From Escherichia phage PP01: a stretch of DNA of 64,000 nucleotides. Shown here piece after piece: positions 4,618 through 63,770 of this stretch (position 1 is its first letter; the number at the start of each line of letters is the position of its first letter). The stretch lies in sequence record NC_054930.1. One strand, 5' to 3'. The notes beneath the pieces are model-generated. The model saw only the letters and a program-made list of their open reading frames with translations, did no database searches and was not told the DNA's origin. The position numbers and the translations under genes are program-made.

Positions 4618-4981
4618 ATTTAATGGCTTGAAGAAGACTAATAATTCTCAAGCGACTTCTTTCATCTTTAACTGTAAAAGAAAGAGGGTCGCCAGATTTC
4701 ATAGTGATAGTGCATTCAAAATCAAAATCTTCAGGAACTTCTTCGAAGAAGTCAAATTCTTCATCATAAATTAGAACATTACTCTGAAAACTGTGAAGAA
4801 TTTTTCCATCATTTCCAGATGCTGTACTAATCATTGTAACATTATGGCCTTTCATATCTTCAACGATAAATTCGCTTGTAGATATTACGGCATTAATAGA
4901 ACCATTCCTATAAATAGAAGAAAGCAGATATTTCTTTTCTTCACCTTCGCGAACACGATATTTCTTACCGATTTTAAACAT
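4610..4981 (-). CDS. hypothetical protein
   Basis: 123-aa ORF in the co-oriented early gene chain. Confidence 0.45.
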   Translation of the reverse strand: MFKIGKKYRVREGEEKKYLLSSIYRNGSINAVISTSEFIVEDMKGHNVTMISTASGNDGKILHSFQSNVLIYDEEFDFFEEVPEDFDFECTITMKSGDPLSFTVKDERSRLRIISLLQAIKFE

Positions 4982-15640: not shown

Positions 15641-15850
15641 TTAAATTACATGACTATTTATAATAAATTCTTGCGGAACGTTAAAATACCCAATTTTAGT
15701 TAATATAACAACATCACCGTTAATAATTACCGGAGAATAATCGGCTGGAGCATTAAACTTCCAATGAGCTCTAATATTATATCCATCAGAACCAAATGCT
15801 CGACTAGCCGGTCTCCCGGCTTTTTGCCATGCATAAAAATCAAATTTCAT
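15641..15850 (-). CDS. small hypothetical protein
   Basis: 69-aa ORF; occupies the locus where T4 has segF. Confidence 0.4.
   Translation of the reverse strand: MKFDFYAWQKAGRPASRAFGSDGYNIRAHWKFNAPADYSPVIINGDVVILTKIGYFNVPQEFIINSHVI
15655..15662 (-). promoter_or_regulatory. late promoter upstream of soc
   Basis: Exact minus-strand TATAAATA about 31 nt upstream of the soc ATG. Confidence 0.6.
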
Positions 15851-16047
15851 TTTGAATGCTCTATAATTAATTTTAAGGCTTCTTCATGCACCTTACCTAA
15901 TTGTATATGTCCAGTTTTAATTGTGTAAGCTTTGTGGAGCTGATTAGATAAGAGCTCGTATGTGAGCTCCTTGTCATAATTTTTAAATAGCTGGTCAATA
16001 CGTTTCTTGTGGGCTTTCTTAAGCTGGCGTTTATTTAAACGAGCCAT
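15847..16047 (-). CDS. small basic hypothetical protein
   Basis: 66-aa ORF overlapping neighbours by 1-4 nt. Confidence 0.4.
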   Translation of the reverse strand: MARLNKRQLKKAHKKRIDQLFKNYDKELTYELLSNQLHKAYTIKTGHIQLGKVHEEALKLIIEHSK

Positions 16048-16565
16048 TAATAACCTCGGTCTTGACGAGCGAAGTTTTCAGCATTTTTCAGATAATAAAG
16101 TTTAAAGATTTCTTCAGCTGACATTCCAAGAGCAATGAATTTATTCATGAAAAAGTGAAATTGATCAATCAATTCAAATTTAATTTCAAGTTGATCTTCA
16201 GGAGATAAATCTTGAATTTTCTTGGATTGCATTTCAGAATAACGTTTCTTCCAAGGTTTCCATACAGCAGAAGCTTCTTTTTCGCCATTGCTCATACCAC
16301 CAAGAGAAGTATATAGCTCGCGAGTTTCGTCTGCGATATAATCGTCTTGGTTTCGCAGCCAAGCAAGAACTTCTCCCGCAGTTTCAAGCGAATCGGGGTG
16401 ACGATTCGTTTCTGGTTTATCATTAGCCAAACGAATCTGTAAATGCCGCTGCATATCAAGCATAACCTGCAGTGGGTCAATATTGTGCATAATATTCTCA
16501 GCATATGCACGATTTGCTTTATCAACACCTTCGATCAAATGAGCGCATTCATTAAAGTAAGCCAT
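16047..16565 (-). CDS. 56: dCTPase/dUTPase (MazG-like NTP pyrophosphatase)
   Basis: ORF track 16047-16658; internal Met at 16565 gives about 171 aa as in T4 gp56. Confidence 0.75.
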   Translation of the reverse strand: MAYFNECAHLIEGVDKANRAYAENIMHNIDPLQVMLDMQRHLQIRLANDKPETNRHPDSLETAGEVLAWLRNQDDYIADETRELYTSLGGMSNGEKEASAVWKPWKKRYSEMQSKKIQDLSPEDQLEIKFELIDQFHFFMNKFIALGMSAEEIFKLYYLKNAENFARQDRGY

Positions 16566-16636
16566 TATTTTTCCTTTCAATTCATGAGTTAGTAGATTAA
16601 TTATACAATAAATATATAAAGCAATAAGGAGGATAT

Positions 16637-16837
16637 ATGGTACAAAAATTAATGGCACTTGTTAATGCCATAAAAGGTAATAAAAAACGTATAGCTTTTA
16701 CTATTTCTGCTATGATAGGAATTTTACTCTGGAATTTTGTTTTATCGCCAATTGCTATTGCTCATGGTGTTAATATTCCAGTAATTACTCTTGATACATT
16801 CGTAGATTTAGCATTTGCTTTGGTTGGGTTAATTTAA
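16637..16837 (+). CDS. small hydrophobic membrane protein (plus strand)
   Basis: 66-aa ORF preceded by AAGGAGG 7 nt from ATG; lies between the divergent 56 and 61 ends; two hydrophobic segments. Confidence 0.5.
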   Translation: MVQKLMALVNAIKGNKKRIAFTISAMIGILLWNFVLSPIAIAHGVNIPVITLDTFVDLAFALVGLI

Positions 16838-17862
16838 ATCTTAGCATATTTAGATAGCCGCATTTTAGCCATCAACCCTTGAGCAATATTATTTTTCATA
16901 TATTCCATAATTTGTTCAGGGGTTGCACCTTCCTTTCTAATCATATCATTAACATCTTTTGATTTCCAGGGAGATTTGTCCCAAAACATAACCCTTTCTC
17001 CTGCATCAACTAATTTAGTCATTCGTTTAATAGTGTCAGGATGACGAGGTTCATTATCTAAAACCCACACACGTCTATCTTTAAATGGAACAATTTCTAG
17101 GTCTAATTGACCACCCGTAATAGCTATACCATTTTCAATAAAAAGCGAATCTATAGGTCCTTCTAGAACATATACATCGCCATCTTTAACCCGTTCAACT
17201 CCATAGATTTTTGTTGCCTCAGGATAAGCTTTGATGGTGATATATTTTTGAGGAGCATCTTTCTTTAACGCACGGCCTTGAAAAGACTCAGCTTTTCCAT
17301 TAGCATTATAAATTGGAATAACAAGACGAGGCTCAGGTATTTCCTTTTTGTATGTTCCTGGTGCTATGCTATTAACTAATTTAGGCCATTCGGTTGTAAA
17401 CCAAAGATATTTCCATTTATCCTTTGGAATACAGCGAGCTTTTACATATTTTATAATTGGATGGTCTTCCGCCAGTTTATCTAATCTAACGCATGACGGA
17501 AGAGATTTAATTATTTTCTTCTCAGGTTGTTTAGGAAGTTCTTTAGGTTTTTCTACTGGACGACTTTTACCTTTTTCTTTTCTTATTTCAAAGATATACT
17601 CACGATATAAATCGGGTTCAAACTCCTTTAAATATATTCCGATTGGTGCATGATAGTTGCAGTTATAACAATGAATATTTCCTTCATTATTATCGCCATA
17701 ATACCATCCACGGGCTTTATTTTGGTCGGTTTTTGAATCTCCACAAACAGGGCATCTAAACCGCAATTTAAAAGTTGAACTATTATTTACTTGTGTGAAT
17801 TTAGGTAAATGAGCCAATGCACGGTATGCAAACTCATTATCAATCCAAGGTATTGATGACAT
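16834..17862 (-). CDS. 61: DNA primase
   Basis: 342 aa as in T4 gp61; zinc ribbon CPVCGDS...CYNC; Toprim region. Confidence 0.9.
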   Translation of the reverse strand: MSSIPWIDNEFAYRALAHLPKFTQVNNSSTFKLRFRCPVCGDSKTDQNKARGWYYGDNNEGNIHCYNCNYHAPIGIYLKEFEPDLYREYIFEIRKEKGKSRPVEKPKELPKQPEKKIIKSLPSCVRLDKLAEDHPIIKYVKARCIPKDKWKYLWFTTEWPKLVNSIAPGTYKKEIPEPRLVIPIYNANGKAESFQGRALKKDAPQKYITIKAYPEATKIYGVERVKDGDVYVLEGPIDSLFIENGIAITGGQLDLEIVPFKDRRVWVLDNEPRHPDTIKRMTKLVDAGERVMFWDKSPWKSKDVNDMIRKEGATPEQIMEYMKNNIAQGLMAKMRLSKYAKI

Positions 17863-17864
17863 TT

Positions 17865-18029
17865 TTACTCTTCTTTTTCTTTAGATTCCTCTTTTTTCTT
17901 TTTAGGAATCTGTTCAGGACCTTTATTTACTGCAGCGCCTGACGTTGTTCCAGTGGAGATATTTTCAGGATTACCACCCGAATCTCCAGCTACCATATCT
18001 TCTTTGATAAATTCTTTATATGTTTTCAT
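17865..18029 (-). CDS. small hypothetical protein (61.1 position)
   Basis: 54-codon ORF found by hand (MKTYKEFIKEDMVAGDSGGN...); fills gap between 61 and the next gene. Confidence 0.35.
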   Translation of the reverse strand: MKTYKEFIKEDMVAGDSGGNPENISTGTTSGAAVNKGPEQIPKKKKEESKEKEE

Positions 18030-21286: not shown

Positions 21287-21649
21287 TTAAAAGAATTTAA
21301 ATTTTTTCTTTGACCTTTTATTAAATGCATCTTGTAGTTGCATTGTAATACATTTTTCTACATGAGGAGCTAACTCAGCTTTTCTTTCTTGGTCAAGAAC
21401 AGCAAAGTCCATTACGACTTTTCCATCAACCCAATCTAATTTTGTCACATACACAATGTGTGTAGAACCGTCTTCTAGTTTAATGACAATCTCCTGGATA
21501 ACATTTTCCATGGCAGATTTAATTATCTTAAGAGATTCATTAAAAAGACGTTCTTTTCTTTCTTCTTCCCCCTCCGAAGAGGGGGATTCGTCGATAATTT
21601 CTAGATCTAAATCCAAATCATCTTTATTCATTAAATTCTTCCATATCAC
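21287..21649 (-). CDS. 40: gp40-like head assembly protein
   Basis: 120-aa acidic ORF between 41 and uvsX as in T4. Confidence 0.5.
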   Translation of the reverse strand: MIWKNLMNKDDLDLDLEIIDESPSSEGEEERKERLFNESLKIIKSAMENVIQEIVIKLEDGSTHIVYVTKLDWVDGKVVMDFAVLDQERKAELAPHVEKCITMQLQDAFNKRSKKKFKFF

Positions 21650-25502: not shown

Positions 25503-25539
25503 TTTATTCTCCAAATCTGTATCAGTAGTTGATAGTTGT

Positions 25540-25569
25540 ATAGTACCACAGAAGAACAGTCTTGTAAAC
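25540..25569 (-). promoter_or_regulatory. early promoter (repeat cassette)
   Basis: GTTTAC, 18 bp, TACTAT preceded by GTGG; about 45 nt near-identical to 52368-52407. Confidence 0.5.
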
Positions 25570-25650
25570 AGTTTTGTGAAAATTTTTTAGGGAATTCTAA
25601 AGGTCCAGAATCATCTGTTTTTCATAAGTATAGATTTATATTACTTGTAT

Positions 25651-25672
25651 GAAAAAGGGACCCGGAGGTCCC
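25651..25672 (-). terminator. rho-independent terminator after gene 43
   Basis: GGGACC-CGGA-GGTCCC stem plus minus-strand T-run. Confidence 0.6.
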
Positions 25673-25685
25673 TAGATTTATTCTA

Positions 25686-40430: not shown

Positions 40431-40460
40431 ATCAAATCCTCAAAGGCAATTCATATGTTA

Positions 40461-40490
40461 ATAATACCACGGTTTGAACTTGTTGTAAAC
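40461..40490 (-). promoter_or_regulatory. early promoter
   Basis: GTTTAC, 18 bp, TATTAT with GTGG. Confidence 0.5.
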
Positions 40491-40569
40491 AACTTTGTGA
40501 AAAATATTTTAGGGAATGACAAGAAGGGAACGATAGCTTAGAATGGTAATATACAGAATGCGAGAAAGA

Positions 40570-40586
40570 AAGGCCCAGAGGGCCCG
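40570..40586 (-). terminator. terminator-like hairpin after nrdH
   Basis: GGCCC-AGA-GGGCC stem with T-rich minus-strand tail. Confidence 0.45.
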
Positions 40587-40588
40587 TC

Positions 40589-58367: not shown

Positions 58368-58409
58368 ATATACCCCTTTAGTTAGATAAACCTATTTATA
58401 ACTTTTGCA

Positions 58410-63618: not shown

Positions 63619-63770
63619 TTCTTCTCTCTAAATTTGGGCCATTCCGTGGCGCATGAATTGTCCATTTCTGTATTTACCCATTACCGCACTTGGGCTCGAC
63701 CTTATTACAGGTTGGCGGGAATCCCTCACAGAACCATGAGGTCCAGCTTGTTCCCATATTTCTTATTTGC

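Follow-up and report, generated by a model that had tools for sequence, protein, structure and literature searches.

Several small membrane proteins described in bacteria and phages offer a frame of reference for the locus studied here. The bacterial modulators AcrZ, MgrB, KdpF and CydX are single-span proteins of about 30-70 residues with conserved residues inside the helix. The T4 antiholin RI, the T4 protein Imm and the phage 21 pinholin S68 have 60-100 residues, an N-terminal membrane helix rich in small residues and probable late timing. With respect to gene position, T4 soc is a late gene in an early-gene region: it is small, lies in an early/middle cluster and has a TATAAATA-type box plus a Shine-Dalgarno (SD) sequence about 20-30 nt before its ATG. 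Early and middle transcription of T4 is always counter-clockwise, and both directions are used by late transcripts only (PMC2988020). Below we compare these systems with a plus-strand open reading frame (ORF) of 66 codons, for which it is probable, overall, that it represents a real gene encoding a small membrane protein, most likely expressed late.

The window (the whole stretch of 64,000 nucleotides that was analysed) covers the left ~64 kb in the genome of a T4-type phage (Tequatrovirus), and minus-strand ORFs (at least 50 aa) occupy 93% of it. A query of 701 bp around the ORF matches 509 phage records (best identity 98.9%), with the annotation order dCTP pyrophosphatase (gene 56), hypothetical protein and DNA primase (gene 61). 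Based on the annotation of phage records with more than 96% identity, gene 56 (dCTPase, 172 aa) is located at 16047-16565 and gene 61 (primase, 342 aa) at 16834-17862, both on the minus strand. The gap of 268 nt between the start of gene 56 (16565) and the stop of gene 61 (16834) is mostly filled by the ORF at 16637-16837 (+). The first-pass annotation had placed the ORF in a divergent gap between these two genes; the location stands, with the ORF divergent from gene 56 and convergent with gene 61. It had also pointed to a lone SD-led plus-strand gene among minus-strand genes, and indeed this is the sole SD-led plus-strand ORF (at least 40 aa) located in a gap of the minus-strand coverage of the 64-kb window.

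The stop codons of the ORF and gene 61 share the palindrome TTAA at 16834-16837. This tail-to-tail overlap is kept in most genera (the window and loci L001, L004-L006, L020-L022, L024 and L025). In metagenomic lineage B the overlap with the primase gene amounts to 14 nt, and in Jiaodavirus and metagenomic lineage A a spacer is found instead (18 and 9 nt, respectively), each with a GC-rich hairpin inside.

The ORF starts with ATG, comprises 66 codons and ends with TAA at 16835-16837. It is preceded by the Shine-Dalgarno sequence TAAGGAGG at 16625-16632 (+), 4 nt before the ATG. Within it the AAGGAGG reported earlier for a 66-codon plus-strand ORF was found exactly, at 16626-16632 and separated from the start by ATAT. 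Since AAGGAGG occurs in the window no more often than expected (3 sites versus 4), it is the position of the motif that counts rather than its frequency. Both elements are kept in relatives: the ORF is present in at least eight genera and (A)AGGAGG or a close variant precedes the start in all 15 family members examined. We assign the start to 16637, because every lineage aligns at the first Met and Met6 is unconserved. The alternative start at Met6 (16652), which has no SD, was ruled out.

Multiple lines of comparative evidence show how the frame evolves. In close pairs dN/dS ranges from 0.10 to 0.37 (Nei-Gojobori), and the variable sites are distributed over the three codon positions as 7/2/12 for Tequatrovirus and as 6/0/10 for Mosigvirus. 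Comparisons across genera show saturation at synonymous sites (pS 0.65-0.83 against pN 0.25-0.38, Nei-Gojobori), whereas the protein is still recognisable at 17-50% identity. These codon-patterned substitutions argue against the view that the frame is open by chance and that the region is conserved as the 3' untranslated tail or terminator of gene 61 together with the promoter of gene 56. Such a view would find some ground in a terminator-like hairpin on the minus strand within the ORF, in a middle-promoter-like element just upstream (both described below) and in the T4 reference annotation, which has no gene here. The hairpin, however, is unconserved outside Tequatrovirus, the family includes a duplicated copy in Gaprivervirus, and a closed ATG-initiated ORF of at least 66 codons is expected in the gap in only about 1% of cases (first-order Markov simulations, 28% GC). 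Judged by comparative data alone a chance frame already appears very unlikely, and in total we regard its probability as close to negligible. The ORF at 16637-16837 is thus, as far as can be read from sequence comparison, almost certainly a real protein-coding gene.

A tblastn search with the 66-aa protein returned 702 phage records, 690 of which are covered over at least 80% of the length. About 500 records show more than 90% identity (T4, T2 and RB phages) and about 200 fall at 43-54% (Mosigvirus, Gaprivervirus). A plus-strand ORF directly 3' of gene 61 is found in Tequatrovirus, Mosigvirus, Gaprivervirus, Dhakavirus, Jiaodavirus, Moonvirus, Gelderlandvirus and Marfavirus, and likewise in an unclassified Yersinia phage and two metagenomic lineages. 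The distant versions (Jiaodavirus, Moonvirus, Gelderlandvirus, Dhakavirus, Marfavirus, the Yersinia phage and the metagenomic lineages) were located by position plus weak similarity. Protein length in the family is 63-69 aa with the first Met aligned. What lies on the other side of the ORF differs between genomes: it may be gene 56, dam (T4), a homing endonuclease or another small ORF. The conserved linkage thus consists of the ORF itself and the end of gene 61.

Three sequence types can be distinguished: type A (pattern AIKGNKK...LWNF...AHG), type B (pattern IWKL..KKDKK...LWNLLVVP...SQG) and type C (Jiaodavirus, Moonvirus and Gelderlandvirus). All three match the PHROG family phrog_2024, with E-values from 1e-24 to 1e-31 (1e-24 to 1e-28 for types B and C). 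The protein of the window matches with E=8.2e-31, residues 2-66 aligning to profile positions 1-65 of 65; it is a member of this family, with the same position and strand, a full-length HMM match and no difference. A profile HMM search across 1.84 billion representative proteins hit only six clusters, each belonging to this family. That profile was built from type A sequences and missed types B and C, which were found by position and weak tblastn similarity and confirmed through the PHROG model. A search for related loci around the ORF returned 7 loci only. Six positions are invariant in all 14 aligned members (M1, W32, N33, P38, G44 and P48), and A40 and G64 are nearly so. Overall, the first-pass reading that the plus-strand ORF is a real gene and encodes a small hydrophobic peptide is borne out by purifying selection, by conservation of frame, start, SD and position, and by membership in one PHROG family.

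In Gaprivervirus types A and B occur as tandem paralogs. Tandem A/B loci are found at L005 1495-1901 (MN01), L004 1495-1901 (VR7) and L023 1268-1583 (Yersinia phage vB_YenM_P8). The B copy of VR7 is unannotated, differs in its C-terminus and has no stop at the expected place. The B copy of vB_YenM_P8, a truncated remnant of 33 aa, is annotated as 'DNA packaging ATPase' and is separated from the primase gene by a homing endonuclease gene.

The gene is not new as an entity, as most relatives already have it catalogued under the label 'hypothetical protein'. Annotated proteins with 100% identity to that of the window exist (for example XAN63867.1 from Salmonella phage F13076), and the cluster of the window protein comprises 156 sequences. 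Names used for the family include RB69ORF029w, RB32 ORF030w and VR7ORF033w, next to hundreds of 'hypothetical protein' entries in Tevenvirinae. In T4 an intact copy with 92% identity is present at 17738-17938 (+) (L001 2739-2939). Nonetheless, neither GenBank AF158101.6 nor RefSeq NC_000866.4 contains a feature between dam and gene 61, and the exact T4 protein sequence is found only in read-archive assemblies without NCBI accession. Literature searches for transcript, ribosome-profiling, proteomic (peptide) or genetic reports on the ORF returned none. T4 serves as the reference for the whole phage group, so that proteomics databases, knock-down libraries and expression tables built on its annotation are blind to this conserved gene. 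Adding the ORF to the T4 annotation at 17738-17938 (+) would be a small but real correction. An intact copy that is absent from the annotation is also seen in JS10 (Dhakavirus; L022 1265-1465).

Upstream of the SD, at 16607-16614 (+), we observe a T4 late-promoter-like box AATAAATA, 22 nt before the ATG. It matches the consensus TATAAATA (positions -13 to -6) at 7 of 8 positions. Among 50 listed late sites of T4, the perfect TATAAATA accounts for 32 and the form with A at -13 for nine (PMC2988020); AATAAATA falls in the latter, the commonest variant class. In relatives of T4 the -13 T is poorly conserved according to a comparative study (PMC1524935). Although the flanks have diverged, 11 of 15 members retain NATAAATA. 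The box takes the form GATAAATA in T4, CATAAATA in Gaprivervirus and Jiaodavirus, AATAAATA in Mosigvirus, Dhakavirus and metagenomic lineage B, ATTAAATA in Moon and STP4-a, and TATTAATA in metagenomic lineage A. The perfect TATAAATA is found in Marfavirus, the only one among the members examined with the consensus T at -13.

The motif ATAAATA, which forms the core of the late box, is about six times rarer than expected in this early-gene window (7 sites; expectation 40.7 +/- 7), with sites at 4910(+), 7712(-), 15655(-), 16608(+), 45137(-), 58393(-) and 62697(+). Four of these seven are located 22-30 nt before SD-led ORFs, namely soc, gene 49, a 70-aa ORF (following the site at 58393(-) and starting with MLQLTEKQ) and the ORF at 16637; soc and gene 49 are known late-promoter genes. 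A consensus scan for a sigma-70-like promoter upstream on the plus strand found none. Against a late promoter speaks a published HMM scan of RB69 late promoters, which gives none near 16.2 kb on the plus strand, the site homologous to the box, and the same paper places late promoters only 5' of orthologs of T4 late genes. Weighing these observations and the strand usage of T4 transcripts, we consider it reasonably likely that the ORF is driven by a late promoter. RNA polymerase directed by gp55 would then initiate late in infection at the AATAAATA box, near 16620. The resulting transcript would have a leader of roughly 17 nt that includes TAAGGAGG and would serve for translation of the 66-aa protein. 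The arrangement resembles that of soc, whose late box is located in the window at 15655-15662 (-). The two differ in that soc shares the strand of its early neighbours and its product is a soluble protein that decorates the capsid, whereas the ORF lies on the opposite strand and encodes a putative membrane peptide.

The remaining plus-strand ATAAATA sites at 4910 (a perfect TATAAATA) and 62697 have no credible downstream ORF. They could start antisense late transcripts.

The same region also contains candidate control elements for the minus strand. Read as the reverse complement, a middle-promoter-like element for gene 56 extends over 16600-16624 (-). It consists of TTGCTTTA (16624-16617), which we take to be a MotA-box, an 11-nt spacer and a TATAAT -10 sequence (16605-16600), followed by the SD of gene 56, all within the 71-nt spacer. 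The same site is annotated as 'predicted middle promoter' in Yersinia phage fPS-90. The late box AATAAATA sits within the 11-nt spacer of this element, and divergent promoters of two temporal classes would thus share the same 25 bp. Part of the local conservation of the box could serve the middle promoter, though the late box is also kept in T4, where the upstream sequence differs.

A consensus scan further revealed a terminator-like hairpin (ATGGCATTAACAAGTGCCAT followed by TAATTTTTG) at 16643-16671 (-), within codons 6-12 of the ORF. The 65-nt stretch folds at -10.4 kcal/mol (z=-1.8). The hairpin is annotated as a terminator in fPS-90 and unconserved in Mosigvirus. Possibly transcripts of gene 61 end at this hairpin, some 165-190 nt past the gene 61 stop, in which case the mRNA would have a tail of that length fully complementary to the ORF. 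On the plus strand no terminator follows the ORF in the window (the nearest weak candidate is at 21364), and late transcription would consequently continue into gene 61 in antisense direction. Given this geometry, it might be argued that the main role of the locus is at the RNA level: the late plus-strand transcript would shut off the primase mRNA, or the locus would act as a type I toxin-antitoxin system, the peptide being secondary. The missing plus-strand terminator, the full complementarity of the ORF to the gene 61 transcript tail (if that ends at the 16652-16671 hairpin) and the fact that T4 transcribes both strands at some sites at different times (PMC2988020) are in line with such a role. 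Selection, however, acts on the amino-acid sequence, and a hairpin terminator is found directly 3' of the ORF in Jiaodavirus and metagenomic lineage A, so antisense read-through is not a conserved feature. With regard to a toxin-antitoxin system, a hydrophobic peptide is present, and the sole antisense RNA to be expected is the gene 61 mRNA tail. No dedicated promoter for an antisense sRNA was found, and Rfam searches of the region and the whole window yielded nothing at the gathering threshold (two sub-threshold matches to eukaryotic RNAs are attributable to chance). We regard a main role at the RNA level as distinctly unlikely.

The N-terminal residues 1-18 contain five K/R and no acidic residue. 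They are followed by a strongly hydrophobic run of about 24 residues (~19-42), and Kyte-Doolittle averages over 19 residues reach maxima of 2.02 (residues 23-41) and 1.87 (residues 47-66). The second segment (47-66) contains two Asp and its modelled helix spans only 11 residues. AlphaFold2 (six-sequence alignment) places helices at 2-14, 16-42 and 52-62 with only moderate confidence (mean pLDDT 72.8, pTM 0.42). The C-terminal 24 residues include two Asp and no K/R, and end with ALVGLI. Digestion at K/R would leave a single large fragment, the hydrophobic residues 19-66, so the protein is poorly covered by tryptic peptides. We conclude that the product is very probably a membrane protein. The two hydrophobic segments of the two-helix peptide proposed earlier are present, but they are not equal membrane helices: the AlphaFold2 model and a published transmembrane (TM) prediction for RB69ORF029w (residues 21-41, no signal peptide) point to one clear TM helix plus a short amphipathic C-terminal helix. 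By the positive-inside rule the N-terminus would be cytoplasmic and the amphipathic helix would lie on the periplasmic side. In the proposed topology the basic N-terminus (1-18) would stay in the cytoplasm, residues ~19-42 would span the inner membrane, and the loop HGVNIP together with the acidic amphipathic helix 52-62 would either be exposed to the periplasm or rest on the outer leaflet.

Alternatively, residues 1-42 might act as a long cleavable signal peptide, leaving an acidic amphipathic secreted peptide of about 24 residues (HGVNIPVITLDTFVDLAFALVGLI) in the periplasm or at the membrane. Small residues indeed occupy the would-be -3 and -1 positions: 13 of 14 members have A40, and all 14 have A, S or T at position 42. 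The residue at -5 is the invariant P38, and the n-region is basic. Yet the hydrophobic core measures about 24 residues against roughly 7-15 for a signal peptide; a core of this length is typical of an uncleaved anchor. The invariant W32 and N33 inside the core would also be unusual for a signal peptide, and the published SignalP result for RB69ORF029w is negative. Cleavage therefore seems unlikely to us, and a membrane-anchored protein remains the preferred reading.

Beyond phrog_2024, database searches linked the protein to no known family or solved structure. Pfam and PADLOC yielded no match and NCBIfam only a sub-threshold one (SspI, E=0.12, with a bit score far below the curated cut-off). 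A profile search of PDB sequences returned weak chance matches only (YejA, E=0.04; NqrE, E=6). Foldseek against viral models found family members only, the rest having E>0.5. UniRef/UniProt gives the name 'Holin' to a 63-aa variant (A0A482MZV5). A holin or pinholin-like lysis protein would fit the small size, the hydrophobic segments and the probable late expression, and the pinholin of phage 21 (68 aa) is close in length. On the other hand, the hydrophobic C-terminus (ALVGLI) has no charged cytoplasmic tail, the neighbours are dCTPase and primase rather than endolysin or spanins, no Pfam or PHROG holin match is obtained and every other database name is 'hypothetical protein'. T4-type phages, moreover, already carry holin T. 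We did not adopt the label, given the lack of a charged tail and of a lysis cassette and the presence of holin T, and rate a holin function as highly improbable.

The invariant residues within the membrane hint, on the basis of the alignment, at a binding partner: as the most likely mode of action, W32-N33...P38, together with G44 and P48, would mediate helix-helix binding to a membrane partner. The likeness to AcrZ, MgrB, KdpF and CydX suggests, by analogy, that the product could act by binding a larger membrane protein; there is no homology and the analogy is purely functional. Compared with T4 RI, Imm and S68, the ORF product lacks sequence or profile similarity, a charged C-terminal tail and a lysis cassette. 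The protein might serve as a small transmembrane modulator of a late envelope function, for instance lysis timing or envelope integrity, even though any specific role in lysis or the envelope is doubtful at best. The most far-reaching option would be an overlooked and functionally important late gene of the T4 family, whose product, a small protein of the inner membrane, uses its invariant W-N...P helix face to bind a membrane component of host or phage and controls a late envelope event such as lysis timing, lysis inhibition or exclusion. We consider this improbable, but if late envelope control were true a missing player would be added to one of the best-studied phage systems. A protein acting on the envelope late in infection would provide a new handle on T-even lysis and envelope biology.

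Besides the ORF locus, the window contains three gaps of at least 120 nt without minus-strand ORF (25515-25685, 40431-40588 and 63619-63770), of which the first two were read. Each of these two contains a GC-rich hairpin (AGGGACCCGGAGGTCCCT and GGCCCAGAGGGCC, respectively) beside an early-promoter-like sequence on the minus strand, and they look like ordinary terminator-promoter spacers. In comparison to T4 (L001), dam and segF are absent from this phage (15641-16047 and 16566-16636 compared). Between soc and gene 56 two small ORFs of 69 and 66 aa resemble soc.1 and soc.2, and the ORF downstream of 61.1 measures 118 aa against 208 aa for T4 61.2.
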